Source: an uncultured Patescibacteria group bacterium (GTDB taxonomy: Bacteria; Patescibacteriota; Patescibacteriia; UBA2591; CALHIP01). Taken from it: DNA of 64,000 nt. How positions within the stretch are numbered: position 1 is the first letter of the stretch; each line of letters starts with the position of its first letter. The position numbers were made by a program, and so were the translations under genes. The notes below the pieces were generated by a model. That model had not been told where the DNA came from, searched no databases, and saw nothing but the letters and a program-made list of their open reading frames with translations. Positions 728 through 41,935 of this stretch are shown in pieces. Location: positions 16,404 to 80,403 of the forward strand of contig CALHIP010000026.1 of assembly GCA_938030745.1 (NCBI GenBank). Direction: 5' to 3'.

Positions 728-2367
728 ACTATATTTTTAAAAGTGGTCTTTTTGGATATTTTTCTATTTTTCTGATTTCTTTTCTCTTTTTCTCTTCTCT
801 TCAATTAGCTAATAAAACATTCCTCTGTCCTGATTCTTTTTACCATGCAAAAATTGCTTCATTTTTATCTAATGGCAAATTAATCAGAAATTTTCCTTGG
901 TTACCTTATACAATTTTAGCTGAAAACTATTCTGATCATCATTTTTTATACCACATTTTACTTATCCCATTTGTCAAACTTTTTGGTGATCAAACTGGCA
1001 TAAAAGTTGCAACTTTATTTTTTGCTACTTTTTCAATTTTTATTTTTTATTGGCTTTTAAGAAAATTTAAAATAAAAGCTGCTTTTGTCTGGACATTTCT
1101 CCTTTTAACTAGTTCAGTTTTTTTAACTAGACTAAATTTAGCTAAGGTTCCGCCAGCTGCCTTATCAGTCCTTTTTTTAGGACTTTATGCTTTATTTAAA
1201 AGAAAATATCTTTTGCTTGGAATAATTTCTTTTGTTTATGTTTGGCTTTACAATACCTGGCCAATTTTATTTGTTGCAACAATTCTTTATTGTTTCGCTA
1301 ACGCTTTTAAAAAAATAATTGATAAGTGGCAGATAATATTTCAAAATTTAAAAAGTTTTAAATTTAGGATTTTAATTTTAGGATTTAAAATTTTCTTTAA
1401 AAATTTTTTTGCTAAAGAAAATTTAGGATTAATCATTTCTTGTTTATTTGGTATTGTTTGTGGTTTAGTCATTAATCCTTATTTTCCTTCAAATCTTTAT
1501 TTTAATTGGGTTCATATTGTCAAAATTGGTTTAAAAAATTATCAAAATATTTTGTCAGTTGGTGCTGAATGGTATCCTTTTGAACCAACCAATCTTATTT
1601 TAAATAATCTCTTTATTTTTGCTGTTTGGTTTATTGCTATTGGCTGGTTTTTTGTCAGTTTTAAAAAATCTTCTTTGTTATTTTCTGGCCAGAAAGCAAA
1701 AACACTTTCTCTTTTTATTTTCTCTTCACTTTTTTTAATTTTTACTATTAAATCAAGAAGAAATGTTGAATATTTTGTTCCCTTAGCCATCCTTTTTTCT
1801 TCTTTTTCACTTAATCGTCTTTTTTCAAATTTTCCTTGGAAAGAGTACTTTTCTCAGTTTAAAGTCAAAGAATTTCCTTATAATTTAATGAGCTTCATTC
1901 TTGGTTTTTTTCTTTTAGTGATTTTTGTTTTCTGTAGCTTTTCTTTTTTTGAAAAAGTTTGGGCAGAAAAAATAAAAGAATTTGCTTCTGGAGCAAGTTT
2001 TGACCAGTTTAAAAAAGTTTCAGAATTCTTAAAAGAAAATACCCAAAAAGGTGAGATAATTTTCCATTCTTCTTGGGACGAATTTCCTCCTCTTTTTTAT
2101 CACAATGATAAAAACTATTATATTGCCGGTCTTGATCCAACTTTTATGTATGAAAAAAATAAGGCTCTTTATTGGATCTGGTTTAATATTGTCAGTGGTA
2201 AACAAAAAAATAATTTAAGTAAAACAATTAAAGAAAATTTTAATGCTCGATATGTTTTTGTTCAGGCAAATCGTCAAAAAATGAAAGAAAATCTTGATCA
2301 GGATAAAGATTTTGAGAAAGTTTACGAAGATAAAGAAGGCTATGTTTACAAAATTAAAAATTTTTAA
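724..2367 (+). CDS. Polytopic membrane glycosyltransferase, GT-C fold (PMT/ArnT/AglB-like)
   Basis: 547 aa with more than 10 predicted TM helices. An early loop contains a CPDSFYHAKIA (D-x-x-YH) motif. A soluble C-terminal domain is present. The start overlaps the upstream stop by 4 nt (ATGA). Confidence 0.55.
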   Translation: MNYIFKSGLFGYFSIFLISFLFFSSLQLANKTFLCPDSFYHAKIASFLSNGKLIRNFPWLPYTILAENYSDHHFLYHILLIPFVKLFGDQTGIKVATLFFATFSIFIFYWLLRKFKIKAAFVWTFLLLTSSVFLTRLNLAKVPPAALSVLFLGLYALFKRKYLLLGIISFVYVWLYNTWPILFVATILYCFANAFKKIIDKWQIIFQNLKSFKFRILILGFKIFFKNFFAKENLGLIISCLFGIVCGLVINPYFPSNLYFNWVHIVKIGLKNYQNILSVGAEWYPFEPTNLILNNLFIFAVWFIAIGWFFVSFKKSSLLFSGQKAKTLSLFIFSSLFLIFTIKSRRNVEYFVPLAILFSSFSLNRLFSNFPWKEYFSQFKVKEFPYNLMSFILGFFLLVIFVFCSFSFFEKVWAEKIKEFASGASFDQFKKVSEFLKENTQKGEIIFHSSWDEFPPLFYHNDKNYYIAGLDPTFMYEKNKALYWIWFNIVSGKQKNNLSKTIKENFNARYVFVQANRQKMKENLDQDKDFEKVYEDKEGYVYKIKNF

Positions 2368-4012
2368 TTTTAAAAAAATCAATCTTTTTGTCATTTTGTT
2401 TTTTACTCTCTTGACTATTTTTATTAGTTGGCCATTAGTCCTTAATCTTGATTCAGCTATTTTTGATTTTTTTATTTTTGATTCATTAAATATTATCTGG
2501 ACTATTAATTGGAATATCCATCAAATTTTTAAAGATCCATTTAATCTTTTCCAGGCAAACAATTTTTATCCAGAAAAAAATGCTCTTGCCTATTCTGAAA
2601 ATCTATTAGGGATTAGTTTTTTAGTTTTACCAATCGTTAAAATTTTTAATAATCCTGTTTTGGCTTATAATTTTTCTCTTTTTTTATCCTTTATTCTTTC
2701 TGGTTATGGAATGTTTTTATTAGTTTATCATTTAACAAAAAATTATTCTGCTTCAATTTTGGCAAGTTTAACTTATACTTTTGCTCCTTTTAAAATCTTA
2801 AGAATGCTTATTCATTTAAATATTGTTTCTGGCCAATGGCTACCATTTGTTTTCTTATATCTTGAAAAATTTTTTGAGGAAAAAAACTTAAAAAATATAA
2901 TTTTATTTTCTTTATTTTTTATTCTTCAGAGTTTAACCTCCCTTCATTATTTTGTTTTTTTATTAGTTAGTGTTTTTGTTTTTTTTATAATCAAGATTTT
3001 TTTAAATCGTCAAATTTTAGATAAAGATTTTTTCAAAAAAATATTTATTTCATTTTTTTTAATTTTTATTTTCCTTCTGCCAATTTTTTTGCCATATTTT
3101 CAAATAAAAGAAGGATCGATAGGTAAGGCATGGGAAATTGCTTTTTATACCCCTTCTTTGAAAGATTATTTAAGAGTATGGTATCTTTTAGAAAAAAAAG
3201 AATTAATTAATAATTTAGAAAAATTTGTTTTTATTGGCTTTGTTCCTTTAATTTTATTAATTTTGTCTATTTTTATTTTTAAAAAAATTAAGAAAGAAAA
3301 TCTTATTATTTATGGAGTCATTGGATTAATTGGTTTTTTATTATCTTTAGGACCTTTAATTAAAATAAAGGAAGGTTATATTTTTGGTTTTTATTTACCT
3401 TTTCTATTTATTCCTGGTTTTAACCAGATCAGAGCGGTTAGCCGATTTTCAATTTTATTATTTTTTGGTTTAAGCATTATCTTTGGTTTAGCATTAGCTC
3501 ATCTTTTTAAAAAGGAAATTTTAAAAAAATTTTTATTTTTTTTCTTATCTATTTTATTTCTTTTTGAGATATTTTTTATCTCTTTAAATTTAGTAAAATT
3601 AATTAGGATTCCGGTTGGTAAAGAAATTCCTGAGGTTTATCAGTGGTTGAAAAAAGAAAAGGAAGATTTTGCCATTCTTGAATTACCAATTGCTTTTAAA
3701 GAACAACTTCCATATCTTTACGCTTTAGATATTAACTCTTTTTATCAATATTTTTCCATTTATCATTGGAAAAAATTGGTCAATGGCGATAGTAGTTATT
3801 ATCCTAATTCTTATTTAGAAAGAGTAAAAATCTTTTTAAATTTTCCCGATGAAAAGTCAATCAAATTGATAAAAGAATTAAAAATTAAATATATCATTCT
3901 TCATTATGATTTAATACCTGAAAAAGAAATGATGGAAAATAAAATCCATCAGTGGCCAGAATTATCTTTAAAAAATGTTTTTGGAAATGATTTTCTCTAT
4001 GAAGTTAAATGA
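2342..4012 (+). CDS. Polytopic membrane protein, putative GT-C glycosyltransferase (start uncertain, 2294 or 2342)
   Basis: About 12 hydrophobic helices followed by a roughly 130-aa hydrophilic C-terminus. It overlaps the 3' end of the previous gene. Confidence 0.45.
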   Translation: MFTKLKIFNFKKINLFVILFFTLLTIFISWPLVLNLDSAIFDFFIFDSLNIIWTINWNIHQIFKDPFNLFQANNFYPEKNALAYSENLLGISFLVLPIVKIFNNPVLAYNFSLFLSFILSGYGMFLLVYHLTKNYSASILASLTYTFAPFKILRMLIHLNIVSGQWLPFVFLYLEKFFEEKNLKNIILFSLFFILQSLTSLHYFVFLLVSVFVFFIIKIFLNRQILDKDFFKKIFISFFLIFIFLLPIFLPYFQIKEGSIGKAWEIAFYTPSLKDYLRVWYLLEKKELINNLEKFVFIGFVPLILLILSIFIFKKIKKENLIIYGVIGLIGFLLSLGPLIKIKEGYIFGFYLPFLFIPGFNQIRAVSRFSILLFFGLSIIFGLALAHLFKKEILKKFLFFFLSILFLFEIFFISLNLVKLIRIPVGKEIPEVYQWLKKEKEDFAILELPIAFKEQLPYLYALDINSFYQYFSIYHWKKLVNGDSSYYPNSYLERVKIFLNFPDEKSIKLIKELKIKYIILHYDLIPEKEMMENKIHQWPELSLKNVFGNDFLYEVK

Positions 4013-5636
4013 AATTGAAAAAATTATTCTAATTTTAATTATTATTTTGGCAGGTTTTTTAAGATTAGTTAGTTTAACTAAAGTTCCTTCTTCTTTTCAT
4101 CATGATGAACTTTTAAGTATTTATGAAGCCTATTCAATTTTTAAAACTGGTTCTGATCAATGGGGAAATTTTTTACCTTTAAGATTTAAAGCTTTTGGTG
4201 ACTGGCCACCGCCTTTATATTTTTATTTTAATGTTCCTTTTGTCTTAATTTTTGGTTTAGAAGAAATTACTGTTAGGTTACCATCTGCTTTTTTAGGAAT
4301 TTTAACAGTTTTTTTAACCTACCTTTTAGCTAAAGAAATCTTTAAAAATAAAACTATTGCCATTTTAGCGAGTTTTTTTCTTTCTATCTCTCCTTGGCAT
4401 CTTCAATATTCAAGGCTAGCTTGGCCAGCAATTATGGTTCCATTTTTAATTAGTTTAGGACTTTGGTTATTTTTTTCTGGTCTGAATAATCAAAAGAATT
4501 CCCGCATTTATTTTGCCATCTTTTTTATTTCTCTTTCTGCTTGGGTCTATACACCAGCTCAAGTCTTTGTTCCTCTGTTTCTTTTTGGTCTATTCATTTT
4601 TTATCATAAGAAGGTAGAAAAAAAAGTTATTTTTTATAGTTTTATCATTTCTTTAATTGTTCTTTTTCCTTTATATTTTTTGAGTTTAATTATTCATCCA
4701 GAATGGCAAACAAGATACAATCAGATCTCAATTTTTTCTTTAAATCAAACAGGATCAGTTAAGTTAGCTCTTTTTCTTTATAATTATCTTTCCCATATTA
4801 GCCCTTATTTTCTCTTTATTTATGGTGATAGTAATCTTAGACATAATCCTTTAGGAATTGGCCAGCTTCATTTTTTTGAAATGTTTCTTTTATTTTTTCT
4901 AATTATTTATATAATCACTCCTCAGATTTTTAGAAAACAAAAGTTTTCTCATTTGCCATTTCTTTTTTATTGGTTTTTTATTTTTCCTTTACCTTCTTCT
5001 TTAACAATTGAAAATATTCCTCATGCTACTCGAACAATTGTCGCTTTACCATTGGTCCATCTTTTTTCTTCTTTAGGTCTTTATCTAATTGTTTCCAATT
5101 TAAAAAATTTTAAATTTCTTTACCCTTTTACCTTGATGATTATTGTTATTATTATAGGCTTATCCTTTTCTTTATATTTATTAAATTATTATAAATTCTA
5201 TCCAATCTATTCTGCTTCTTGGTTTGGCTATGGAAATAAGGAGGTAGTAGAATATATTAAAGAAAATCTAAATAATTACGAAAGATTTGTCTTTTCTGGA
5301 ACAAGATACCATCCCTATCTTTATTTTGTTTTCTATTTTAAAATTGATCCGAAAGTTTTCCAAAAGACAGTTAAAACAGATAAAGATTTTGAAGAAAAAT
5401 ATAAAGTGGTGATTGTAAAAAGTTTTAATAATTTTGAATTTAAAGAATCTCTAAAAGAGGAAAAATTTTTACCAAAAACTCTTTATATAGAAAAAAGATA
5501 TCTTGAAACAGAAATAGAAACTGAAAAACAGAATTTGGGGGAAACTTTATTAGAAGAAATTCCTTTAGAAATAAAAAGAATTATTTATTTACCTAATGGG
5601 TTAGAAGCATATCGAATTTATGAATTTAAAAAATGA
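3975..5636 (+). CDS. GT39/GT83-family (ArnT/dolichyl-phosphate-mannose protein mannosyltransferase-like) membrane glycosyltransferase
   Basis: The N-terminal block ILAGFLRLVSLTKVPSSFHHDELLSIYEAYSIFKTGSDQWGNF…GDWPPPLYFY is typical of the PMT_2/ArnT family. It has a polytopic TM region plus a soluble C-terminal domain. Confidence 0.7.
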   Translation: MFLEMIFSMKLNEIEKIILILIIILAGFLRLVSLTKVPSSFHHDELLSIYEAYSIFKTGSDQWGNFLPLRFKAFGDWPPPLYFYFNVPFVLIFGLEEITVRLPSAFLGILTVFLTYLLAKEIFKNKTIAILASFFLSISPWHLQYSRLAWPAIMVPFLISLGLWLFFSGLNNQKNSRIYFAIFFISLSAWVYTPAQVFVPLFLFGLFIFYHKKVEKKVIFYSFIISLIVLFPLYFLSLIIHPEWQTRYNQISIFSLNQTGSVKLALFLYNYLSHISPYFLFIYGDSNLRHNPLGIGQLHFFEMFLLFFLIIYIITPQIFRKQKFSHLPFLFYWFFIFPLPSSLTIENIPHATRTIVALPLVHLFSSLGLYLIVSNLKNFKFLYPFTLMIIVIIIGLSFSLYLLNYYKFYPIYSASWFGYGNKEVVEYIKENLNNYERFVFSGTRYHPYLYFVFYFKIDPKVFQKTVKTDKDFEEKYKVVIVKSFNNFEFKESLKEEKFLPKTLYIEKRYLETEIETEKQNLGETLLEEIPLEIKRIIYLPNGLEAYRIYEFKK

Positions 5637-6316
5637 TCTCCCTTATCATTCCAACTTATAAAGAAAAAGAAAATATTGGTAAATTACTTTTTTTGATTTG
5701 TAAACTTAATCTTAAGGATTTTGAAGTAATTGTTGTTGATGATAATTCACCTGATAACACAGCTGAAGAAGTAGAAAAAAATGCTAAAAAATTGCCTTTG
5801 AAAATAAAATTGATTAAAAGAAAAGGTAAAAGGGATTTATCTCTTTCTGTTTTGGAAGGATTTAAAAAAGCAAAAGGAGAAATTTTAGGAGTAATGGACG
5901 CTGATTTTTCTCATCCACCAGAATTGATTCCAAAAATGATTAAAGAATTGGAAAATGTTGATTTAGTTATTGCCAGTCGAAAAATCTCTGGTGGAGAAAT
6001 CAAAAAATGGCCATTAAAAAGGAAAATTTTTTCAGGATTAGCAACTTTTCTGGCTAAAACCTTAGTTCCAAAAATCTCTGATCCTTTATCTGGTTTTTTC
6101 TTCTTTAAAAGAAAAATTATTAAAGAATTAAAACTTTCACCAATTGGTTATAAAATAGGCTTAGAAATTTTTGTTAAAGGAAAATATAAAAATTTTAAAG
6201 AGATACCATTTGTTTTTAAAGATAGAGAAATTGGAAAAAGTAAGTTAAATTTTAAAGTAATTTTAAAATTTCTTTTCCATATTTTAAAACTCTGGTTTTG
6301 GAAAATAAAAAAATGA
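5633..6316 (+). CDS. GT2 glycosyltransferase, polyprenol-phosphate mannose/glucose synthase (DPM1/GtrB-like)
   Basis: LIIPTYKEKENI…VIVVDDNSPDNT…LGVMDADFSHPPE are GT-A motifs including DxD. A C-terminal amphipathic/TM tail is present. Size 227 aa. Confidence 0.8.
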   Translation: MISLIIPTYKEKENIGKLLFLICKLNLKDFEVIVVDDNSPDNTAEEVEKNAKKLPLKIKLIKRKGKRDLSLSVLEGFKKAKGEILGVMDADFSHPPELIPKMIKELENVDLVIASRKISGGEIKKWPLKRKIFSGLATFLAKTLVPKISDPLSGFFFFKRKIIKELKLSPIGYKIGLEIFVKGKYKNFKEIPFVFKDREIGKSKLNFKVILKFLFHILKLWFWKIKK

Positions 6317-7512
6317 AAGAAATAAAAAAAATTTATTTTTTTCTTTTTCTAGTTATTGTTTTAATCAAATTTTTATTTTTACCTTTTTTTGGTGATTTTT
6401 ATGATTTATTTCTTCATAGTCAATGGGCAAATTTTTTAATTAAAAATCCAATCAATGAGATTTATTCAAAAACAAATTGTAATCTTCCGCCATTTTGGGT
6501 TTATATTTTATGGTTATTTTCTAAAATTCATTTTTTAATCACCAATAAAATAGTTTTTGTTTATTCAGAGGTCTTAAAAATTCCAGCTATTCTTTTTGAT
6601 ATTTTTACTGGCCTTTTGATTTTTTATTTTTTAATTAAAGAAAAAATTGAAGAAAAAAAAGTATTTTTAGCTAGCTTATTTTTCCTTTTAAATCCTTTTG
6701 TTTTTTATCTTTCTTCTTTTTGGGGCCAGCTAGATTCAATCTATGTTTTTTTTATTCTTCTTTCTTTTATTTTTCTTTATTATAAAAAAACAATTTTTGC
6801 CTCAATTTTTCTAGCCCTTTCTTTTTTAACTAAACTCCAAGGGATTATTTTTTTCCCTTTGTTTTTCTTTATTCTTTTTAAAAATTATCCTTTTAAAAAG
6901 ACAATTTTTTCTCTTTTAACTATTCTTCTTGTTATTTTTATTATTCTTTTACCTTTTCTTATTAAAGGATATTCACCAGTTTTTATTTTCCAAAAAACTT
7001 GGATAGCCTCTTGGCGGTTTGCAAATTTTCTTTCTTTAAATGCTTTTAATCTCTGGTGGATTCCTCAGATAATTTTTTCTTTTTTGGAACCTCCTTATAT
7101 TTATGACTACCTTCCTTTGTTTGGCTCAATAAATTTTAAAATGATTTCTTTGATTCTTTTTTCTCTTTTTTATTTGTTAATTATTTTAAATATTAGAAAA
7201 AACATTTTCTTTTTAGCTAGTTTAGTCTCTTTTTTGTTTTTTATGATACCAACAGCTATGCATGAAAGGTATATCTTTCCATTTTTTGCTTTCTTTTCAA
7301 TTTTTTGGCCAATAAAAAGAGGTTATTTAAAATATTATTTTTATCTTTCTTTAACTTCATTTTTAAATCTTTTAGCTGTTTTACCACCAACCTTTCTTTT
7401 CGAAGAAACTCAAAAAATTTTTTCTCTTTTTATTGGTCAATTAAGTATTCCCTTAACACTTATTAATATCTTTATTTTCTTTTATTTTTTCTTTATTCTT
7501 TTTAAAATATGA
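6298..7512 (+). CDS. Polytopic membrane protein, putative GT-C mannosyltransferase (DUF2029/GT87-like)
   Basis: 404 aa, almost entirely TM helices, within the GT cluster. Confidence 0.4.
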   Translation: MENKKMKEIKKIYFFLFLVIVLIKFLFLPFFGDFYDLFLHSQWANFLIKNPINEIYSKTNCNLPPFWVYILWLFSKIHFLITNKIVFVYSEVLKIPAILFDIFTGLLIFYFLIKEKIEEKKVFLASLFFLLNPFVFYLSSFWGQLDSIYVFFILLSFIFLYYKKTIFASIFLALSFLTKLQGIIFFPLFFFILFKNYPFKKTIFSLLTILLVIFIILLPFLIKGYSPVFIFQKTWIASWRFANFLSLNAFNLWWIPQIIFSFLEPPYIYDYLPLFGSINFKMISLILFSLFYLLIILNIRKNIFFLASLVSFLFFMIPTAMHERYIFPFFAFFSIFWPIKRGYLKYYFYLSLTSFLNLLAVLPPTFLFEETQKIFSLFIGQLSIPLTLINIFIFFYFFFILFKI

Positions 7513-7787
7513 GAAAAAATTTTTTAATTACTGGTGGAGCAATCAATAATTTAATCATTTCAATTCTTTTTGGTTTATCTTTAGTTAAAATTTTAGAAAT
7601 TATTAAAGAAATTTCTTTCCGCCCAAATTTATTAGAAATTTTACTTCTTCTTTTTTGTTCTTCTCAATTTTATAGCTATCTTCCTCGATTAGTTCAGAAA
7701 AAAATATATTCATGCATAACTCTTTTATTTATATTTCTAAATAGAAATTATGATAAAAATTCTTATTGTTTTACCAACTTACAATGA
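7509..7787 (+). CDS. Small membrane protein, possibly a truncated GtrA-family flippase-like protein
   Basis: MRKNFLITGGAINNLIISILFGL resembles the GtrA N-terminus. It sits immediately upstream of, and overlapping, a GtrB-like GT2 gene. It is short (92 aa), so it could be spurious. Confidence 0.3.
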   Translation: MRKNFLITGGAINNLIISILFGLSLVKILEIIKEISFRPNLLEILLLLFCSSQFYSYLPRLVQKKIYSCITLLFIFLNRNYDKNSYCFTNLQ

Positions 7788-8472
7788 AGAGAAGGTAGTT
7801 GAAGAAAATACATTAAAAGTTTTTGAATTTTGCCAGAAAAATCTAAAAGATTTTGATTGGCAGATTTTAATAGCTGATAATGGATCAATTGATAAAACAT
7901 TTAAAATTGCTGAAAGACTTTCAAAAAAATATCAAAAAATTTCATTTTTCCATATCCCTGAGAAAGGAAGGGGTTATGCTTTAAAAAAGGCATGGTCAGA
8001 ATATCAGGCTGATATTTATTCTTATATGGATATTGATCTTTCTTCTGATTTAAATTCTTTTCCTTTATTGATTAAGGCAATTACTGAAAATAATTATGAT
8101 TTAGCAATTGGCTCGCGTTTGAAAAAGGGAGCAAAAAAAAGGCGTTCTTTCTTAAGAGAAATTATGAGTCGAGTTTATAATCTTCTTTTAAAAATTTTAT
8201 TTAATCCATCATTTGAAGATGCCCAATGTGGTTTTAAGGCTATCTCAAAAAGAGTCGCCAAAGAAATTCTACCGAAAGTAAAAAATAATCATTGGTTTTT
8301 TGATACTGAACTTTTAATTTTAGCTGAAAAAGCAGGTTTTAAGATTAAAGAAATTCCAATTGAATGGATAGAAAAAAGAACAGTTAAAAGGAAAAGTACA
8401 GTTAAAATTTTTTCAACAATTTGGGAAGATATTAAAGGAATAATAGAATTAAAATTTCGGTTAAAGAAATAA
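7750..8472 (+). CDS. GT2 glycosyltransferase, dolichol/polyprenol-phosphate sugar synthase (GtrB/DPM1-like)
   Basis: ILIVLPTYNEE…LIADNGSIDKT…YMDIDLSSD (DxD)…QCGFKA are GT2 hallmarks. Confidence 0.8.
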   Translation: MIKILIVLPTYNEEKVVEENTLKVFEFCQKNLKDFDWQILIADNGSIDKTFKIAERLSKKYQKISFFHIPEKGRGYALKKAWSEYQADIYSYMDIDLSSDLNSFPLLIKAITENNYDLAIGSRLKKGAKKRRSFLREIMSRVYNLLLKILFNPSFEDAQCGFKAISKRVAKEILPKVKNNHWFFDTELLILAEKAGFKIKEIPIEWIEKRTVKRKSTVKIFSTIWEDIKGIIELKFRLKK

Positions 8473-8534: not shown

Positions 8535-9257
8535 ATGGCAAAAAAACAGAGAAATAACCAAAAAAATAAGGACAACCAAAAAAATAAAAAATTTCCTTGG
8601 TATGGAAGCTTAGCAATTGTTATTACTGCACTTATCGTTTTCCTTATTCTTGGACTAACAATTCTTAGTAAGATCTCAGTTACAAGAAAAGCAAAAGTCA
8701 CTGGTAATGAAGATGAGGTTACAGTAGAGATCCGGAATTTTTCTAATCATGATGAAGTGATGGAATTTCTTTTCAAAAAATTAGACAAGTATAAAGAAAA
8801 CGGGAAAATAAATAAACTTTTTGAAGAAATAAAAAATCTCTCTTATCAGATAGCACAGATAAGAGAACTTCTTAAGGAGAAAAAAGATGAGAATCAGAAA
8901 CTTCAAGCCCAACTGAAAAATCTTGAAAGACAACTTAGTTATAAAACAGATAAATTAATCCAGGAATTAAAAGATAAAAAAGAGCAAAAAGTTAAAGAAG
9001 AAGTTAAAAAAGAAGAACCTCTTAAAGTAATAATTTACAATAAAACTTCAAGAAACGCAGAAATCTCTGGACTTTTCAGATATCCTCGATTGAAAATAAA
9101 CGCCCACGAAAAGATAGTAGTCTATTTATCTCCTGGAGATTACATAATAGAAGTAACGATCGGAAGAAGAAAGGTGCAGACTAAACTTACTGTATCTAAA
9201 AACGAAATTTTTTATCTTGGAGAAGCTTGCTATGGGTATATTGAAATCGACGATTAA
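8535..9257 (+). CDS. Single-pass membrane protein with central coiled coil and C-terminal PEGA-like beta domain
   Basis: Basic N-terminus, one TM helix (LAIVITALIVFLILGLTIL), a heptad-rich segment (QLKNLERQLSYK…) and a C-terminus (SPGDYIIEVTIGRRKVQTKLTV) resembling PEGA domains. Confidence 0.5.
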   Translation: MAKKQRNNQKNKDNQKNKKFPWYGSLAIVITALIVFLILGLTILSKISVTRKAKVTGNEDEVTVEIRNFSNHDEVMEFLFKKLDKYKENGKINKLFEEIKNLSYQIAQIRELLKEKKDENQKLQAQLKNLERQLSYKTDKLIQELKDKKEQKVKEEVKKEEPLKVIIYNKTSRNAEISGLFRYPRLKINAHEKIVVYLSPGDYIIEVTIGRRKVQTKLTVSKNEIFYLGEACYGYIEIDD

Positions 9258-9279: not shown

Positions 9280-9315
9280 AAAGAGAGGGGTAAGATACCC
9301 CTCTCTTTAACTTTT
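9280..9315. terminator. Bidirectional rho-independent terminator: 13-bp perfect stem AAAGAGAGGGGTA/TACCCCTCTCTTT with 3-nt loop, T-runs on both strands
   Basis: Stem 9280-9292 / 9296-9308, followed by AACTTTTTATTTTTAT on the plus strand and preceded by CAAAAAGG on the plus strand (a T-run when read on the minus strand). It lies between convergent genes. Confidence 0.8.
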
Positions 9316-9323: not shown

Positions 9324-9761
9324 TCAACTTGTCTTGACTCTGAAAGGCTTTTCTACTCCTAATCTTTCTAAAATAAATAAATAGATCACTCGGGCTAAAA
9401 TAATGATAACTAAACCAAGAATTGCTTCTTTAATTAAATTTTTTGCTTTTTTAATCTGTTCTTCATTTGCTGAACCAGTTATCCATAAAAAGCCACCATA
9501 AATAATAATAATAATAAAAATAACACCAATAAAAGTTAAAAGATAGTTAATAATTTTAACAATTGTCATTATTGGATCTGTCTCTGTTGGAAGCTCTGGC
9601 ATTTCTTTAGTTACCTCTCCCCAGACTTTTTTTAAAAGATTTAAAGTTCGTTCTTCTACTGGTGTTTGAGCAAAACTTTGGGATAAAGATGAAAAAACAA
9701 AAAGAAGAAAAATCAGCCAAAAAAGAATTATTTTAAATTTTTTAAAGGCAGTAATTTTCAT
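9324..9761 (-). CDS. Pilin-like secreted protein with two-TM core (TrbC/VirB2-like T4SS-pilin family), paralog A
   Basis: Signal peptide MKITAFKKFKIILFWLIFLLFVFSSLSQSFA. Core IINYLLTFIGVIFIIIIIYGGFLWITGSANEEQIKKAKN plus a second TM helix. Confidence 0.55.
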   Translation of the reverse strand: MKITAFKKFKIILFWLIFLLFVFSSLSQSFAQTPVEERTLNLLKKVWGEVTKEMPELPTETDPIMTIVKIINYLLTFIGVIFIIIIIYGGFLWITGSANEEQIKKAKNLIKEAILGLVIIILARVIYLFILERLGVEKPFRVKTS

Positions 9762-9766
9762 ATTTT

Positions 9767-10183
9767 TTATTTAGGCTGGAAAGAAGCAAGGCCGTGTAGT
9801 CGGCTAATTACAAAAGCAGTAATTGTATAGGCAAAAAGAATAACAAGTAAACCAACAAGAGCATAAGTCAAAGTTTTTTTTGCTTTTCCAACTTTTTCTT
9901 CATTACCACCAGCGGTCATCCAAAGGTAACCACTGTAAATAATCATACAAACTGCTATCACTCCTAAAAAAGATAAAAGATATTGAATAATATTAAAAAC
10001 AATTTCAAGAATATCTCCTTTTTCAAGAATTGGTGTTCCTTCAATTAATTCAGATTCATAATCTGATGGTGAGGGAGGTTCTTCTTGAGCTAATAAAATT
10101 TGATTCGGCAAGAAAAAAAATAATAAGAAAATAATAAAACTTTTAAGGAAGATTGATTTCCTCTTATTATTTTTTTTAATCAT
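9767..10183 (-). CDS. Pilin-like protein, paralog B
   Basis: Signal peptide. Core IIQYLLSFLGVIAVCMIIYSGYLWMTAGGNEEKVGKAKK plus a second TM helix. Confidence 0.55.
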   Translation of the reverse strand: MIKKNNKRKSIFLKSFIIFLLFFFLPNQILLAQEEPPSPSDYESELIEGTPILEKGDILEIVFNIIQYLLSFLGVIAVCMIIYSGYLWMTAGGNEEKVGKAKKTLTYALVGLLVILFAYTITAFVISRLHGLASFQPK

Positions 10184-10269
10184 TTTTATATAGAGAAAGA
10201 GTCAGAATTTTCTTTAAAGAAAATCTAAAACTTTTTCCTTGCTTCTTTCTTCAATTTTAAAATCAGAAA

Positions 10270-10632
10270 TTAGGCAAAAGCTCTCAATTGACTGATGACG
10301 AATGAAGCAAGAGCAAAGGCAAGTAAAACAACAATTAAACCAATTAAACCTTGAATTAGGACTTTTTTTGCTTTTCCAACTTTTTCTTCATTACCACCAG
10401 CAGTCATCCACATAAATCCACCAATAATAATCACTACTAAAGCAACTACACCTAAAAAGGCAAGAACATACTGGATAGCAGTAAAGATAATTTTAATTAG
10501 ATCGGCGTTTTTTAAGACTGGCGTCGGTGCAACAAGATTGTTCATCCATTCTTCCCAATTATTAACTTGAGCAAAAACTATAGCTGGTAGAACTAAAAGA
10601 GTTAAGCTTAAAGGTAAAATTAATTTTTTCAT
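10270..10632 (-). CDS. Pilin-like protein, paralog C
   Basis: Signal peptide MKKLILPLSLTLLVLPAIVFA. Core AIQYVLAFLGVVALVVIIIGGFMWMTAGGNEEKVGKAKK. GGAGGG RBS upstream. Confidence 0.55.
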   Translation of the reverse strand: MKKLILPLSLTLLVLPAIVFAQVNNWEEWMNNLVAPTPVLKNADLIKIIFTAIQYVLAFLGVVALVVIIIGGFMWMTAGGNEEKVGKAKKVLIQGLIGLIVVLLAFALASFVISQLRAFA

Positions 10633-10750
10633 ATTTTTTCTTTTTTACTTAACCCTCCAACACACTTAAATATTCATTTACTCGACCTTTTATTATTTTT
10701 ATTATTCATCTTTAAAAATAAAAAGTCAAGAAAGGTTATCCACAAGTTAA

Positions 10751-11104
10751 TTATTTCGGCTGTTCGATAAATTTTTTAATAATGAAAGTCACTAATGAAT
10801 AGGAGAAAAAGACAATGGCTAAACCAAGAGTTGCCCAAACTAATGTATTTTTTCCTTTTTTGACTTGTTCAACGTTGCCACCAGAAGTCATCCAGAGAAT
10901 ACCACCATAAATAAACATAATTAAAGCTAAAACACCAACAATGCCTAAAACAAGTTTAATCGCATTGGCAATGATTTGATACATCTCAAGATTGCCAAGG
11001 GGAGAAGGAAGTTCTTCTTGGGCAAAAATAGGTCTAATAAAATTAAAAAGTAAAAAGTAAAAAGTAAAAATGGTAAGAATAATTATTTTTTTAGAAAGAG
11101 ACAT
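10751..11104 (-). CDS. Pilin-like protein, paralog D (start trimmed to the Met of signal peptide MSLSKKIIILTIFTFYFLLFNFIRPIFA)
   Basis: The listed ORF 10751..11212 overlaps the upstream paralog by about 100 nt. The internal ATG at 11102-11104 gives a canonical signal peptide and a 10-nt intergenic gap. Core YGGILWMTSGGNVEQVKKGKN. Confidence 0.5.
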   Translation of the reverse strand: MSLSKKIIILTIFTFYFLLFNFIRPIFAQEELPSPLGNLEMYQIIANAIKLVLGIVGVLALIMFIYGGILWMTSGGNVEQVKKGKNTLVWATLGLAIVFFSYSLVTFIIKKFIEQPK

Positions 11105-11114
11105 AAATTTAAAA

Positions 11115-11567
11115 CTATTCTGATTTTTTTTCTTCGGTAGTAGGAAAAACATACCATTTTTTAGAGCCGAAAATCTCACAGGACTGAAGAATCTGACCTT
11201 TTGAAAGACCACAAATAATTATATTGACAATATACCAGGAAAGAAAAACAATCATCAAGCCAAATAAAGTACCAATTAAAATTTGTTTTCCTCTTTTCAC
11301 TCTTAAAGGGTTTCCGCCTGAAGTTATCCAGATTATACCACCAACAATGAAAAAGATCAAAGCAAGAACTCCAATTATTCCTAAAAGAAAAAGAGAAACA
11401 CCTCTAGCTAATCTTAAAAAATCAATTAATTGACAATTGCCTTCTTCCCGACACTCCAAACTTACTTCCTTAAGGATATACCATTCAGCAGCGGAAACAG
11501 ATCTAAGAAATAAAAGAGGAAAAATAATCAATAATAAACCAGCGATTAATAAATTCTTTTTTTTCAT
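11115..11567 (-). CDS. Pilin-like protein, paralog E (Cys-containing N-terminal ectodomain)
   Basis: Signal peptide MKKKNLLIAGLLLIIFPLLFLRSVSA. Core LGIIGVLALIFFIVGGIIWITSGGNPLRVKRGKQ plus a second TM helix. Confidence 0.5.
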   Translation of the reverse strand: MKKKNLLIAGLLLIIFPLLFLRSVSAAEWYILKEVSLECREEGNCQLIDFLRLARGVSLFLLGIIGVLALIFFIVGGIIWITSGGNPLRVKRGKQILIGTLFGLMIVFLSWYIVNIIICGLSKGQILQSCEIFGSKKWYVFPTTEEKKSE

Positions 11568-11572: not shown

Positions 11573-12958
11573 TTATTTTATTGTTTGATTTATTTTTAAA
11601 ACAGCAAAATTAATTGCCTCTTTATAGGTTTTTTTACCATCAATGACATCATTAATCATTTCCTTCATCGCTTCTTCCATTAAAAGAGCATTTTTACCTT
11701 TATACCAAGAAAAAGCAGTTAAAGATTGACTGGCGAAAACTTCTAAATCAGGATCTTTCATTTGTTCAACAATTAAGCTTCTTAAAGCTGTTGGTTTTTT
11801 AGTTTTAAGAAGATAACCAACAGGATTTAAGGCAGAAAATTTTAAAAATGCCCAAGCTAAATCTTTATTTTCACTTTTTTTTGAAACAACCTGAACTTGA
11901 TAATGAGCGAAATTTATTTCTTTAATTGTTCCTTCTGGTTGAGGCATTTTAGCAATTCCTAAAGGAATGTTTGGTCCTTGGCTTCTAATTAAAGGAAGGT
12001 GATAGGCATAACCGAAGAAAAAAGCTAATTTTCCTTGAGTAAAAAGTTCTAAAGCTCTTGGCATTTCTTTATTCCAAGTATAGATTTCTTTATTTTTATC
12101 TTGAAAATCAGTATAAAATCTTAATGCCTCTTCTGCTGGAAAATAATTTGGATCACCAGCTAATGGCTGGTTAAAAGTAGCAAAACCATCTGGATTACTC
12201 ATTGAAGTTCCAACCTGCATCATTAACAATGATAAAATATCAGTTGGTCTTTCAATATTATTAGTAGTCCCTAAAGCAGCTCCTGCTTGATAAATATTTC
12301 CTTCTTTATCAATTAAAGTTAATTTTTTTACTTGTTGAATAAATTCTTCCCAAGTTTTTGGTGGTAAAGGAATTTTTGCTACATCTAGAAGATCCCGATT
12401 ATAATATAAAACTAAAGTATCAAAACTTAAAGGAAGACCATAAATTTTATTATTAATCACAACATCTTTTTCAACCTGAGCAACAAACAACTTTGATAAA
12501 TCTTCAACTCTTAAAAGTTTTTCTTCTTTTGTTAAAATCTTTCTTTTTTTAAAACAGCCTGGGCCTGTTTCAATTTCTTTTTTTAAAAAAACACTATTTG
12601 GCATTGGTTCAAGCCATTCTTTGGCATATTCTCTTATCCAAGTATTAGGTAAAGAAAAAATATCAGGGCCAACTCCTTTTGCCCAAGCCTCAATTAAAGC
12701 ATCTTTGTATTCTTCATACCGAAGTTTTCTCACGTTAATATTAACATGAGGATAAACAGCTTGAAATTGACTAATCAAAGGAGAAAAATCAGATGGTTCT
12801 TCCCAAATTACCCACCAATTTAAAGTAACTGGCGGTAAAATTGGCTTTTTAGCTGGTGCTCCTGGCATTGGCAACTGAGGAATCTGGCTTTCTACTTTCG
12901 CTCCAAAGATAAGAAAGAAAAAAATTAAAGATAAGAGGAAAATTTTAACTAACCGCAT
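11573..12958 (-). CDS. ABC-transporter family-1 extracellular solute-binding protein (sugar/oligosaccharide type); no cognate permease or ATPase nearby
   Basis: 461 aa with an N-terminal signal/anchor sequence. The overall pattern NWWVIWEEP…GPDIF…W matches the SBP_bac_1 family. Confidence 0.6.
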   Translation of the reverse strand: MRLVKIFLLSLIFFFLIFGAKVESQIPQLPMPGAPAKKPILPPVTLNWWVIWEEPSDFSPLISQFQAVYPHVNINVRKLRYEEYKDALIEAWAKGVGPDIFSLPNTWIREYAKEWLEPMPNSVFLKKEIETGPGCFKKRKILTKEEKLLRVEDLSKLFVAQVEKDVVINNKIYGLPLSFDTLVLYYNRDLLDVAKIPLPPKTWEEFIQQVKKLTLIDKEGNIYQAGAALGTTNNIERPTDILSLLMMQVGTSMSNPDGFATFNQPLAGDPNYFPAEEALRFYTDFQDKNKEIYTWNKEMPRALELFTQGKLAFFFGYAYHLPLIRSQGPNIPLGIAKMPQPEGTIKEINFAHYQVQVVSKKSENKDLAWAFLKFSALNPVGYLLKTKKPTALRSLIVEQMKDPDLEVFASQSLTAFSWYKGKNALLMEEAMKEMINDVIDGKKTYKEAINFAVLKINQTIK

Positions 12959-12967: not shown

Positions 12968-13828
12968 TTATAATTTTAAAATTTTTTTAAGATCTTTTTG
13001 AATTTCTGGATGTTTTAATCCTATTTCAATATTTGCTTTTAGCCAACCAATTTTATTTCCGCAGGAAAGCCATTCCCCTTGATATTGATAAGCATAAATT
13101 TCAATTCCTTTTTCTAATAAAATTTTTAAAGCGTCAGTTAAATAAATTTCTTGGCCTGGTTTTATTTTTTTTGATCTTAAATTTTCTAAAGGCTGAAAAA
13201 TTTCCGGAGTTAAAATATAGCGACCGGTAATCGCTAAATTTGATGGTGCTTGGGAAATTTTCGGTTTTTCAATTACATCTAAAACTTTAAAAATTCTTTT
13301 TTCTATTCTTTTTCCTTTTATTATACCATAAGAAGATACTTCTTTTTTTAAAACAGGATGAACAGCTAAAACAATTTTTTTATATTTTTGATAAACCTCT
13401 ATTAATTGTCTAAGACAAGGAATCTTACTTTCGATAACATCATCAGCAAAGAATAAAGCAAATGGTTCATTCTTAACTTTATTTTTTACACATAAGATAG
13501 CATCACCAATTCCTAAAGGTTTTTTTTGATAAAGATAGGTAATCTTTGAGATGTTTGTTTTTTCTATTTCTTTTAAAAGATCGAATTTTTTCCTTTTAAC
13601 TAAAATATATTCTAATTTTTTATTTTTTTTAAAATAATCTTTAATATTTTCTTTTTCTTTTGAAATAACCAAGATAATATTCTTGATTCCTGAATTAAAT
13701 ATCTCTTCAATTAAATATTGAAGAACTGGTTTATCAACTAAAGGAAGCATCTCTTTAGGAAACGCCTTAGTGATAGGTAAAAACCTTGTTCCTAAACCGG
13801 CTGCTAAAATAACAGCTTTTTTGATCAT
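12968..13828 (-). CDS. galU: UTP--glucose-1-phosphate uridylyltransferase
   Basis: KAVILAAGLGTRFLPITKAFPKEMLPLVDKPVLQY is the canonical GalU N-terminus. Confidence 0.85.
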   Translation of the reverse strand: MIKKAVILAAGLGTRFLPITKAFPKEMLPLVDKPVLQYLIEEIFNSGIKNIILVISKEKENIKDYFKKNKKLEYILVKRKKFDLLKEIEKTNISKITYLYQKKPLGIGDAILCVKNKVKNEPFALFFADDVIESKIPCLRQLIEVYQKYKKIVLAVHPVLKKEVSSYGIIKGKRIEKRIFKVLDVIEKPKISQAPSNLAITGRYILTPEIFQPLENLRSKKIKPGQEIYLTDALKILLEKGIEIYAYQYQGEWLSCGNKIGWLKANIEIGLKHPEIQKDLKKILKL

Positions 13829-16870: not shown

Positions 16871-17584
16871 TTACTGTCTTTTAAAGAGAAAAGTTTGTTG
16901 AAAGATGGTTAAAATTAAATTGACTAACCAATAAAGAACTAAACCACTTGGTAAACCTAAGCTAATAACAAATGTAAAAATAGGCATCATTACCTTCATT
17001 TGTTTATTAAGAACTCCCATCACTGACTCATTTTCCTTTCTTTTTTCTTTTGGCATCTTGACTAATGATCTTTTTGTTTCAAACATTTTTATTTGAAAAT
17101 ATTGAAAAAGGCCAGTTAATAAAGCTAAAGAAAAATTTTTTTCAGCTAAATTAAACAATCCAAAAGCAACTAAATTAAGTTGTCCTGGGTTTTTTATAAA
17201 TGGATAAAGAGGTAAAGTTTGACTAAAAAGACCAGTTCTGAAAACTTGATAGACAGCAATAAGAATTGGTAATTGGATGATTAAAAAGAAGAAGGGAGAG
17301 AATGGATTAATTTTATAAGTTTTATAAAGCTGAATTGTTTCCTGAGCAAGTTTTACTTTATCATAAGAAAATTTTTTCTTGATTTCTTCTAATTTCGGTT
17401 GAAGTTCGGCTAAAGATTTTTGAACTCTAATTTGTGAAAGAGATAAAGGATATAAAATTAGTTTAACAAAGATTGTTAAGAAAATAATTGATAAACCTAA
17501 ATCATAAAAACCAATAGTTTGATAGAAAAAGATTAAAAGATTTAAAAGAGGTTGATAAAAAATGAGGTTAAAAATTTTAATCAT
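16871..17584 (-). CDS. yidC: Membrane protein insertase YidC (short, Gram-positive-type)
   Basis: YQTIGFYDLGLSIIFLTIFVKLILYPLS, an amphipathic helix, and C-terminal LPSGLVLYWLVNLILTIFQQ. Confidence 0.8.
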   Translation of the reverse strand: MIKIFNLIFYQPLLNLLIFFYQTIGFYDLGLSIIFLTIFVKLILYPLSLSQIRVQKSLAELQPKLEEIKKKFSYDKVKLAQETIQLYKTYKINPFSPFFFLIIQLPILIAVYQVFRTGLFSQTLPLYPFIKNPGQLNLVAFGLFNLAEKNFSLALLTGLFQYFQIKMFETKRSLVKMPKEKRKENESVMGVLNKQMKVMMPIFTFVISLGLPSGLVLYWLVNLILTIFQQTFLFKRQ

Positions 17585-20496: not shown

Positions 20497-20815
20497 AAGA
20501 TTTATTTTCCTGATTAAGATATTCTAAAACTTTTTCTTTTAGTTTTTTAATCTCAGGGGGTACTTTCTCTTCTTTATTTTCAATTAAATTTAAATTAGAA
20601 ATTTTAAAACTTTTTATTTCTTGGAAGATGTTTTTAAACTCTTCTAAAAAACTTGAAGTTTCTTCTTCTAATTTTTTAGGCAGGACTTCTTGATATTTTT
20701 TTGTTTTAAATGTTAAGAATTTCAAATAAACTCGCCAAAGAATAAATAAAATTATAAAGGTAGTAATAACTAAGACCCAGAGGAAAGTTTTTTTTCTAAA
20801 CTCTTTTTCTTTCAT
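20486..20815 (-). CDS. Small N-terminally anchored membrane protein, unknown
   Basis: One TM helix (FLWVLVITTFIILFILW) plus a charged tail. Confidence 0.35.
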   Translation of the reverse strand: MKEKEFRKKTFLWVLVITTFIILFILWRVYLKFLTFKTKKYQEVLPKKLEEETSSFLEEFKNIFQEIKSFKISNLNLIENKEEKVPPEIKKLKEKVLEYLNQENKSYEE

Positions 20816-21412: not shown

Positions 21413-21430
21413 AGCTTATCTTATCAGTTC

Positions 21431-21459
21431 TTTACTGTTTTGTCAAATTTTGATATAAT
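21431..21459 (+). promoter_or_regulatory. Extended -10 promoter (TTTACT, 17 nt, TGaTATAAT) 8 nt upstream of the S1-gene ATG
   Basis: TATAAT at 21454-21459 with TG at 21451-21452. No SD before the ATG at 21468, implying a leaderless or near-leaderless mRNA. Confidence 0.45.
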
Positions 21460-21467
21460 GAATAAAT

Positions 21468-40700: not shown

Positions 40701-40704
40701 ATTT

Positions 40705-41925: not shown

Positions 41926-41935
41926 TTTTGAAAGT

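Follow-up and report, generated by a model that had tools for sequence, protein, structure and literature searches.

Patescibacteria account for a large share of uncultivated bacterial diversity and apparently live attached to host cells; the T4SS, with its unusual pilin arrays, is the only secretion machine demonstrated to be required for this lifestyle. A total of 441 arrays of VirB2-like genes, each comprising 2-11 genes, have been described in Patescibacteria (Quinonero-Coronel et al., 2025; PMC12102498). An array was defined in that study as at least two PF18895/PF04956 genes in tandem, or with one non-pilin gene between them. The mean identity within these arrays is 25%, with a maximum of 54%, and such pilins are located near virB4 in 1135 of 1948 assemblies; antigenic variation was raised as a possible function by analogy with the VirB2 paralogs of Bartonella and Anaplasma (PMC12102498). 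In Ca. Southlakia epibionticum, an array of six PF18895 pilins (SEML1_0014-0019) is located inside a T4SS cluster, and each of the six was scored essential (Wang et al., 2023; PMC10633639). Since pilin arrays have already been described as common in ultra-small Patescibacteria, the locus reported here is a typical example of such an array and not a discovery.

Within the 64-kb stretch of DNA that was analyzed (hereafter the window), positions 9324-11567 comprise five intact, co-oriented minus-strand ORFs, designated A to E in order of transcription (Table 1); being five adjacent genes, they constitute an array under the published definition. A profile built from A-E matched exactly five copies in a six-frame translation of the window, with the next match at E = 0.17. 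For B, translation from the ATG at 11104 is preferred, as a longer GTG form that starts at 11212 would overlap A and is unlikely. The spacing is 5 nt between the upstream solute-binding protein (SBP) gene and A, 10 nt between A and B, 118 nt between B and C, and 5 nt between D and E; in the relatives L001 and L004, too, B is separated from C, and C from D, by a gap. The promoter-like site in the B-C gap could possibly function as an internal promoter; across the region, the consensus scan returned no more sites than expected by chance. A single terminator lies 3' of E. This GC-rich hairpin, which coincides with inverted repeat I7 of the repeat scan, likely acts as a bidirectional terminator for the pilin operon and for a convergent gene at 8535-9257. 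A search of Rfam with the region from 8 to 22 kb returned no match.

Table 1. Coordinates of the pilin genes and of nearby features in the window.
Feature	Position	Strand	Description
Pilin A	11115-11567	minus	150 aa; first gene 3' of the SBP gene; PF18895, 33.5 bits
Pilin B	10751-11104	minus	117 aa; PF18895, 45.0 bits
Pilin C	10270-10632	minus	120 aa; PF18895, 35.7 bits
Pilin D	9767-10183	minus	138 aa; PF18895, 40.3 bits
Pilin E	9324-9761	minus	145 aa; last gene; PF18895, 33.6 bits
Promoter-like site, TTGACT-17-AATAAT	10701-10729	minus	Consensus scan only
GC-rich hairpin with T-runs on both strands	9280-9308		Terminator scan; 13-bp stem, 6 GC pairs
SBP_bac_1-family solute-binding protein	11573-12958	minus	461 aa; PF01547, 101 bits
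GalU-like nucleotidyl transferase	12968-13828	minus	PF00483
GT2 glycosyltransferase	7750-8472	plus	PF00535; first member of convergent glycosyltransferase cluster 724-8472

All five proteins score above the PF18895 (T4SS_pilin) gathering score of 26.6 bits (33.5-45 bits). Against PF04956 (TrbC/VirB2; cut-off 27.9), B passes with 29.3, D (23.6), C (18.4), and E (17.4) remain below the cut-off, and A is unmatched. When aligned with four Agrobacterium-type VirB2 proteins by hhalign, the family was in register, with a probability of 37% and E = 3.6e-4. The NCBIfam model NF045849 (Mbov_0395; cut-off 40 bits) is passed by C with 43.1 bits, whereas D (34.4), E (33.7), B (26.4), and A (10.6; E = 0.35) fall below. 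A PDB sequence search with the family profile found no pilin; the only matches were spurious summed ones to designed "Pizza" beta-propellers, through a short GxxWxTxxGN-like repeat.

Hydropathy profiles of each protein reveal a signal-peptide-like N-terminus, a variable segment of 9-28 aa, a first transmembrane helix (TM1), a short polar and basic loop, and a second transmembrane helix (TM2). The signal-like segments end in (F/L/S)A↓Q or SA↓A, where cleavage would be expected to occur. In AF2 models of A and D, the two helices form a hairpin whose core has a pLDDT above 90: helices 46-82 and 87-121 in A (overall pLDDT 80.8), and 57-90 and 95-133 in D (overall pLDDT 78.8). In fold searches, the hairpin of A-E was indistinguishable from any other helical hairpin. 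Pilins of type IV pili were considered and rejected in light of the long signal peptides, the Ala at position -1, and the two hydrophobic helices of A-E; a class III prepilin leader was likewise rejected, as none of the sequences carries a G↓FxxxE motif. These results confirm the structure that a first-pass annotation, made from the sequence alone, had described for the array: five co-oriented, back-to-back genes with a TrbC/VirB2-type pilin core, each encoding a signal peptide, a variable ectodomain, and a conserved C-terminal unit. Similarity to a pilin family is evident in five of the five proteins, and a helical hairpin is indicated by hydropathy for all five and by AF2 for A and D. The core motif given there is a fair consensus, from which A and E depart.

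The variable segments and the regions appended to the core distinguish five types. Pilin A combines a Cys-containing ectodomain with a 30-aa C-terminal tail and is the copy with the four Cys residues noted at first pass. The orthologs of A carry 8-12 Cys each; in the close relatives P0321-P0323, the ectodomain is likewise shortened and the tail likewise bears Cys, and two of them keep all four Cys positions. Pilin B is the most conserved type, with orthologs that are 71-77% identical, and its ectodomain, QEELPSPLG, is the shortest of the five. The ectodomain of C is marked by a Trp-rich motif, NW(E/Q)xW(M/L)xN (orthologs 65-75% identical), Ser, Thr, Pro, and acidic residues are abundant in that of D (48-53%), and E has the longest ectodomain (48-62%), with alignments revealing 10-13 additional residues inserted into the inter-helix loop of its relatives. 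At least five lineages, L001, L004, L007, and L091 among them, retain these five types in an unchanged order. Positional orthologs are 48-77% identical, whereas paralogs within a genome are 23-55% identical (25-45% in the window). By region, the window paralogs share 20% identity across the ectodomain and 35% across the core. The mature N-terminal regions had been described as almost unrelated between copies, in agreement with ectodomain identities of 13-20% between paralogs versus 30-65% between orthologs, and each type has its own ectodomain motif that is conserved among its orthologs. Judged from these comparisons, A-E are ancient and distinct subunit types. The nearest relatives of the window are all Patescibacteria MAGs, and the source is a small-genome organism of the Patescibacteria type, in agreement with the small-genome bacterium suspected at first pass.

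The array is preceded by a co-directional train of genes encoding the SBP, GalU-like, and ClpB-like proteins, a 128-aa protein of unknown function, YidC, and GyrA. Except for the 128-aa ORF, this train had been recognized in the first-pass annotation, as had the short spacing between SBP gene and array (about 6 nt, measured here as 5 nt). Its description there as a train of housekeeping genes with the array at the 3' end is misleading with respect to the SBP, which is a conserved partner of pilin arrays: in 53 of the 72 species-level GTDB loci that could be assessed, and in seven of seven annotated related contexts, a pilin gene is directly preceded by an SBP homolog. The arrays of Ca. S. epibionticum and Nanosynbacter TM7x, in contrast, have no SBP. 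In 52 SBP-linked loci, the first pilin is of best-type A in 40, the second is of best-type B in 35, and the median Cys count of the pilin that follows the SBP is 8. The order of such arrays, as read from these assignments, is usually an SBP, a first pilin rich in Cys, a second pilin that is short, and then generic copies. Published accounts of pilin arrays (PMC12102498, PMC10633639) mention no linkage to an SBP, no ordered Cys-rich/short/generic layout, and no one-to-one orthology across lineages; the SBP is a candidate accessory protein that is absent from those accounts.

The SBP has a hydrophobic N-terminal leader without a lipobox Cys, and among solved structures it is closest to trehalose/maltose and oligosaccharide binding proteins. 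Nearly all window ORFs of at least 110 aa were screened, and neither a permease nor an ATPase of the ABC type was among them; an SBP-dependent transporter with small membrane subunits was considered and rejected. Genes for sugar metabolism and transfer recur near the arrays. Over 80 GTDB loci, a GalU homolog is present within 3 kb of the pilins in 26, often just upstream of the SBP, and a GT2 homolog is present in 28, in 15 of which it is within 3 kb of a pilin ORF; in 7 loci, a glycosyltransferase gene lies between pilin genes. Annotated examples of glycosyltransferase neighbors are L091, L097, and L098. In the window, the convergent cluster at 724-8472 also includes a second GT2 gene, a PMT_2 gene, and three large ORFs without a Pfam match. 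Possible signs of a nearby replication origin are DnaN, encoded at 25289-26392, and a simultaneous switch of gene strand and GC skew near 21.4 kb; however, GC skew follows gene strand elsewhere in the window too, and the 20 DnaA boxes found (14.4 expected) are neither enriched nor clustered.

Secretion genes were sought at several scales. In agreement with the first-pass annotation, which had reported no VirB4/VirB6/VirD4-type gene in the window, a screen of nearly all window ORFs of at least 110 aa detected no VirB4, VirD4, VirB6, or PrgI, and the 10 kb around the array contained none in any of seven contexts annotated with Pfam. A jackhmmer search with PrgJ, PcfC, PrgI, and PrgH of pCF10, run without a positive control, gave no match in the window or in 1.5 Mb of related loci, and no T4SS gene was found near any of about 88 related arrays. 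The window likewise encodes no integrase, relaxase, or recombinase.

The operon probably encodes an orphan sugar-type SBP together with five non-redundant VirB2-like pilins that contribute to a heteromeric, T4SS-built surface structure involved in host contact. Each pilin would be exported via Sec and cleaved after its (F/L/S)A motif, and the mature protein would form a helical hairpin in the membrane, with both ends outside the cell and the short basic loop inside. Side-by-side assembly of the five types into a single heteromeric surface structure is the most likely arrangement. This structure would be a pilus or pilus-like stalk that is built by a Patescibacteria-type T4SS, assumed from the literature to be encoded elsewhere in the genome, and that would function in host-cell contact, with the co-transcribed SBP as an associated extracellular component. 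Single-chain poly-pilin fusions found elsewhere, in which 2-17 hairpin units follow one signal peptide, have a predicted topology that is compatible with side-by-side subunits, and their existence implies concurrent use of the copies. Ordered types, a partner gene, and poly-pilin fusions speak for a heteromeric structure rather than for variants that can replace one another. A literature search found no PF18895 protein with demonstrated filament formation. The five ordered and retained types, the sugar-binding partner gene, and the natural poly-pilin fusions provide testable leads on how such arrays work.

A more specific reading of the same gene neighborhood, which we regard as unlikely, is that the array belongs to a distinct surface module of ABY1-type Patescibacteria that is encoded away from T4SS genes and that consists of an SBP, a Cys-rich first and a minimal second pilin, generic pilins in variable number, and often GalU and glycosyltransferases. 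The hairpins would then build a heteromeric and possibly O-glycosylated filament or stalk, with glycosyltransferases of the polyprenol-phosphate-sugar GT2 and GT-C types alongside the array, and the filament would carry or cooperate with the SBP to recognize or capture host glycans. If true, this would be an undescribed use of T4SS pilins.

Comparably unlikely is that no pilus is formed, and that the hairpins remain in the cytoplasmic membrane as a T4SS-independent anchor or display platform. Such a platform would hold the Cys-rich knob of A, the SBP and, elsewhere, giant adhesins, and it may act with the neighboring glycosyltransferases. Giant ORFs of 2300 to more than 3400 aa with an N-terminal PF18895 unit and Ig-like, TIG, lectin-like, or fn3 domains point in this direction, as do the poly-hairpin fusions, which are multi-pass membrane proteins, and a C-terminal extension with a weak PG_binding_1 match in the type A protein of L091. 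For the long poly-pilin fusions and the giant adhesin fusions, a membrane anchor is no worse an explanation than an extruded pilus. Moreover, an SBP that has neither a lipobox nor a permease partner would need some other anchor, and T4SS genes are absent near the related arrays and in the annotated contexts outlined above. Against this, A-E are homologous to TrbC/VirB2 pilins, pilins of this type are near virB4 in over half of the assemblies surveyed (PMC12102498), and the Saccharimonadia PF18895 pilins are located inside a T4SS cluster and were scored essential along with it (PMC10633639). A T4SS-built structure remains the preferred reading.

The first-pass annotation put forward a stock of variable subunits as a plausible device for host attachment or antigenic variation; taken as a stock of interchangeable pilin variants that would serve antigenic or host-range variation via differential expression or recombination, this is improbable. 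In its favor are the near absence of similarity between ectodomains, the Bartonella and Anaplasma analogy (PMC12102498), and rates of change: between close strains, dN is 3-10 times as high in the pilins as in neighboring genes, and the dN/dS of D, from small counts, reaches 0.72. However, all dN/dS values from two close strains (0.17-0.72) are below 1. The fixed order and one-to-one orthology across five lineages, with orthologs more similar than the paralogs of the window, and the conservation of ectodomain types among their own orthologs also argue against interchangeable variants. At the DNA level, the cores of the copies are only 65-70% identical, with a longest shared segment of 124 nt, and a repeat scan of the array revealed no silent cassettes, near-identical tracts, or invertible repeats, the inverted repeats present being short AT-rich ones and the terminator; recombinase genes, as noted, are also lacking. 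Further, all six paralogs of S. epibionticum were individually scored essential (PMC10633639), and the fused poly-pilins point to simultaneous use of copies. Finally, although the nearest NCBIfam model is a mycoplasma family of integrated conjugative elements (ICEs), with C above its cut-off and three others matching below it, it is highly improbable that the array is the remnant of such an element from which only pilins are left, given five intact ORFs, purifying selection on A, B, and C, a location amid housekeeping genes in a synteny shared by five lineages, an array GC content equal to that of its surroundings (0.285-0.294), and a window without integrase, relaxase, or T4SS genes.

The array can be placed among known systems as follows. 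The 80-residue hairpin core is similar to that of Mbov_0395 from mycoplasma ICEs, and C exceeds the cut-off of that model, whereas the other four proteins do not and the ICE context is absent. As in the VirB2 families of Bartonella and Anaplasma, divergent VirB2-like genes are arranged in tandem in a host-dependent bacterium; unlike in those families, the window paralogs are ancient and in fixed order and show no sign of recombination. With TrbC/VirB2 proteins (PF04956; Agrobacterium VirB2), A-E share small size, a long Sec signal peptide predicted to be cleaved at Ala↓Gln, a pair of hydrophobic helices with a short connecting loop, and a G-x-x-W-M motif region; B also passes the model cut-off. 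They differ in that four of the five fall below that cut-off and in their longer, type-specific ectodomains. Canonical systems, moreover, have one major pilin, whereas five paralogs are encoded here without adjacent virB1 or virB3-virB11, and the bacterium is presumably a monoderm, unlike the setting in which VirB2 pilus assembly is understood. The described Patescibacteria arrays (PMC12102498) resemble the window array in being tandem sets of small PF18895/PF04956 proteins (mean identity about 33% and maximum 45% in the window) that are chromosomally encoded in a Patescibacteria-type genome, with no relaxase nearby. What sets the present array apart from them is its position, outside a T4SS cluster and directly after an SBP_bac_1 gene in a gyrA-yidC-clpB-galU train.

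The locus is an operon of an orphan sugar-type binding protein (SBP; SBP_bac_1 family) and five non-redundant VirB2-like pilins, termed A to E in transcription order. The five pilin genes are intact minus-strand ORFs, in keeping with the first-pass annotation of five co-oriented genes at 9324-11567, and a profile of the five found exactly five copies in the six-frame translated window (next match, E = 0.17); the five-gene array is real and far beyond chance. For B, the ATG at 11104 is the best start; a mechanical GTG start at 11212 would overlap A. Intergenic gaps are 5 nt (SBP to A), 10 nt (A to B), 118 nt (B to C), 86 nt (C to D), and 5 nt (D to E), the operon ends at a GC-rich hairpin with T-runs on both strands, and the GC content of the array region is that of its surroundings. 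No Rfam elements were detected between 8 and 22 kb of the window. An exact DnaA-box nonamer (TTATCCACA) lies inside the B-C gap, DnaA boxes being neither enriched nor clustered in the window; gene orientation and the sign of GC skew both flip near 21.4 kb, and dnaN is found at 25.3 kb.

Features of the window discussed in the text, with the identity of each pilin to its positional orthologs
Feature	Coordinates	Strand	Description	Ortholog identity
Pilin A	11115-11567	-	intact ORF, 150 aa	53-60%
Pilin B	10751-11104	-	intact ORF, 117 aa	71-77%
Pilin C	10270-10632	-	intact ORF, 120 aa	65-75%
Pilin D	9767-10183	-	intact ORF, 138 aa	48-53%
Pilin E	9324-9761	-	intact ORF, 145 aa	48-62%
SBP	11573-12958	-	461 aa	
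Terminal hairpin	9280-9308			
DnaA-box nonamer	10736-10744			
Glycosyltransferase cluster	724-8472	+		
GalU-like	12968-13828	-		
GyrA	17581-20496	-	971 aa	
GyrA intein	roughly 19720-20094			
Orientation and GC-skew flip	20500-21470			
dnaN	25289-26392			
Glycogen/alpha-glucan cluster	39219-45815	+		

All five proteins scored above the gathering threshold of Pfam T4SS_pilin (PF18895; 33.5-45 bits versus 26.6), and B also exceeded that of TrbC/VirB2 (PF04956; 29.3 bits versus 27.9), for which C, D, and E were sub-threshold; the earlier assignment to T4SS/TrbC-type pilins is thereby upheld. The nearest NCBIfam model, NF045849, is a mycoplasma ICE pilin-like family and was above cut-off in C only. 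By hydropathy, every protein begins with a signal-peptide-like stretch that ends in (F/L/S)A before Q (SA before A in pilin A), followed by a variable segment of 9-28 aa (the ectodomain) and two hydrophobic helices with a short basic loop between them, of consensus (T/S)xGGN(E/V/P)xxV(K/G)(K/R)(A/G)K. AlphaFold2 predicts a long helical hairpin for both D (pLDDT 78.8) and A (pLDDT 80.8), with core pLDDT above 90. Hydropathy recovers the previously proposed signal peptide and two-helix hairpin for A to E, and modeling recovers the hairpin for D and A. When a profile of 20 pilins of the clade was compared with four bona fide VirB2 proteins encoded on plasmids of Agrobacterium, Sinorhizobium, and Acetobacter, 55 columns aligned in register; they begin at the ectodomain end and take in TM1, the W-M motif, the loop, and TM2. 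The pairwise E-value was 3.6e-4 and the probability only 37%. Fold searches matched generic hairpins alone, with no discrimination between families, and a PDB sequence search returned artefactual repeat matches alone. A type IV pilin identity was rejected, with a type IV prepilin leader present in 0 of 5 proteins. The family is very large: a profile search at E <= 1e-3 retrieved 93,917 cluster representatives (clusters at 50% identity).

Upstream of and co-directional with the pilins are genes for the SBP, a GalU-like nucleotidyl transferase, a ClpB-like ATPase, a 128-aa unknown, YidC, and an intein-containing GyrA, neighbouring genes overlapping or being at most 9 nt apart. Downstream and convergent, a gene for a 240-aa coiled-coil protein is accompanied by a glycosyltransferase cluster with two GT2 genes, a PMT_2 gene, and three large ORFs without a Pfam match (547, 572, and 404 aa). 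Sugar-related genes stand on both sides of the operon: this cluster and a PGI-like SIS protein on one, GalU and the sugar-type SBP on the other. The ectodomains of D and E are rich in Ser, Thr, and Pro, and, judging from sequence, O-glycosylation of the pilins is a possibility. Farther away, a glycogen/alpha-glucan cluster encodes a starch-synthase-type Glyco_transf_5, two GH57 proteins, an APH-family kinase, and a GalT-like uridylyltransferase. A Pfam scan of nearly every window ORF of at least 110 aa found no VirB4, VirD4, VirB6, PrgI, relaxase, integrase, or ABC permease/ATPase, in agreement with the earlier reading that VirB4/VirB6/VirD4-type genes are absent from the window.

A GTDB scan with one genome per species yielded 343 confirmed relatives, of which the best 80 loci (L009-L088) were examined. 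All 80 derive from MAGs of Patescibacteria type that bear the names Magasanik-, Uhr-, Falkow-, Buchanan-, or Komeilibacteria; the source genome of the window is not one of them. Many MAGs with such loci (L010-L013, L018, L021, and others), which are binchicken and SRP co-assembly bins, carry the record title 'uncultured Gammaproteobacteria bacterium', probably a placeholder or an error given their gene content. At least two pilin ORFs occur in 78 of the 80 loci (maximum 15 per locus; median main-array size 6). When large neighbouring ORFs of the 80 loci were clustered, the commonest neighbour was an SBP_bac_1 protein, located immediately 5' of the main array in 43 loci and of a lone first pilin in 10 more, and hence directly upstream of a pilin in 53 of the 72 loci having the upstream side present. 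The arrangement was repeated in seven Pfam-annotated contexts, in none of which (0/7) was an ABC permease beside the SBP. This SBP family is well conserved (44-78% identical over hundreds of Patescibacteria proteins), and the closest relatives with solved structures bind trehalose/maltose and oligosaccharides. Among SBP-linked loci (n = 52), the first pilin was best matched by type A in 40 and the second by type B in 35, with a median of 8 Cys in the first pilin versus 0 in the remaining pilins. Among the best 80 of 343, 26 loci have a GalU homolog just 5' of the SBP, 28 contain GT2 homologs, 17 encode GT-C-like membrane proteins, and 7 have a glycosyltransferase gene between pilin genes. Some arrays are split (L089 11381-19748; L098 11377-19843; L040, L052, L054, L059, L064, L075, L079): the SBP and one pilin are followed by an insert of ~4.5 kb and six more pilins, the insert encoding an HTH/Glucodextran_B protein, a methyltransferase, a GT2, an MptA_B/GT87-type glycosyltransferase, a 543-550 aa unknown and, in L089, an rve transposase.

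Natural single-chain poly-pilins also exist, in which one signal peptide is followed by 2-17 hairpin units with short linkers; many database proteins are of this kind (P0173-P0183 and similar, e.g., P0174, P0177, P0180), with consistent unit-to-unit topology. About 10 related MAGs encode giant Cys-rich adhesin-like ORFs (2,300 to >3,400 aa) with an N-terminal PF18895 unit and Big_5, TIG, Laminin_G_3, or fn3 domains, preceded 5' by an ORF of 550-1,050 aa that likewise starts with a pilin unit (L025 7850-9949 and 9953-20335; L010 9974-16945; L026, L031, L038, L044, L058, L074, L087); these loci are without the SBP. The main rival explanation is that the hairpins are a T4SS-independent membrane anchor or display platform, as suggested by these adhesin-like proteins and by the lack of T4SS genes nearby. 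T4SS components make up none of the ten largest neighbour clusters of the 80 loci, and jackhmmer searches with pCF10 PrgJ, PcfC, PrgI, and PrgH, run with no positive control, gave no match in 1.5 Mb of loci. Pointing to pilins used simultaneously, side by side, are their fixed-order orthology, the single-chain fusions, and the individual essentiality of each paralog in Ca. Southlakia epibionticum, where essential predicted pilin subunits lie within an essential T4SS cluster (Wang et al., 2023, PMC10633639) and six PF18895 genes, SEML1_0014-0019, each scored essential (supplementary tables, PMC10633639).

The gyrA-yidC-x-clpB-galU-SBP-five pilins layout is common to four related lineages, three from JGI metagenomes (L001, L004, L007) and one from NCBI assembly GCA_026417895.1 (L091). 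Positional orthologs are much closer to each other than are paralogs of the same genome, which share 23-55% identity (25-45% in the window, with core DNA only 65-70% identical); this holds for ectodomains (30-65% versus 13-20%) and cores (46-73% versus 28-38%). Each type keeps its own ectodomain motif among its orthologs: xxLxEVSxECxxxGxC in A, together with a C-terminal tail with two Cys, EELP(S/N)P(L/I)G in B, NWxxW(M/L)xN in C, and Y(E/I)xEL in D. For L001 and L007, the closest pair of strains, dN was 0.003-0.007 and dN/dS 0.04-0.25 for neighbouring genes, and, from small substitution counts, dN was 0.015-0.049 and dN/dS 0.17 (A), 0.22 (B), 0.17 (C), 0.72 (D), and 0.37 (E) for the pilins. 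Long near-identical tracts or invertible-element-like repeats were not found among the five window copies. Collectively, these data point to five subunit types that are old and have each been retained, and do not match a stock of variants that was amplified in recent times or is recombining. Fast ectodomain divergence and the dN/dS of D, itself from small counts, lend weak support to the first-pass suggestion of a stock of variants for antigenic variation; however, that suggestion is doubtful, being contradicted by most of the comparative data, including the excess of ortholog over paralog identity and the lack of such tracts and repeats. The conserved housekeeping synteny contradicts an ICE remnant. 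Individual lineages differ in detail: type E orthologs (L001 10373-10852, L004 10428-10877, L091 13554-14000) carry 10-13 extra residues in the loop between the helices (e.g., GFNPEKFTFGDED, GGVTDFLWIAGPSHEE), which window E lacks; the type A protein of L091 (11368-12234; 288 aa) has a Cys-rich C-terminal extension of ~130 aa with a weak PG_binding_1 match, suggesting a putative peptidoglycan-binding head on an extracellular tail; and GyrA in L001, L007, and L091 is 814-815 aa with no intein match, the window intein being recognized by PF14890 Intein_splicing and PT-HINT matches at about residues 135-259.

The preferred reading is that the pilins are Sec-exported and insert as hairpins whose two termini lie outside the cell, and that the five most likely assemble together into a single heteromeric surface structure, putatively a filament, which would be built by a T4SS encoded elsewhere and serve host contact. 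Pilin A and the SBP may be specialised parts of it, possibly distal or accessory.

The window array is a published kind of system, correctly identified, and would not surprise a specialist. Among 3,035 Patescibacteria genomes searched with PF18895 and PF04956, VirB2-like pilins were reported in 1,948 VirB4-containing assemblies, near virB4 in 1,135 of the 1,948, with 441 arrays of 2-11 pilin genes each (identity mean 25%, maximum 54%); the authors suggested variation resembling immune evasion, or else adaptation to different hosts (Quinonero-Coronel et al., 2025, PMC12102498). A 2025 review regards such pilins as a feature unique to monoderm T4SSs (PMC12857230). Neither PMC12102498 nor a full-text literature search mentions a solute-binding partner of pilin arrays. 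To this published picture, the present analysis makes modest additions that could guide experiments into array function, namely the linkage to the SBP, the array order (Cys-rich, then minimal, then generic pilins), the one-to-one orthology of its paralogs, the repeated presence of sugar-metabolism and glycosyltransferase genes nearby, and the poly-pilin fusions.
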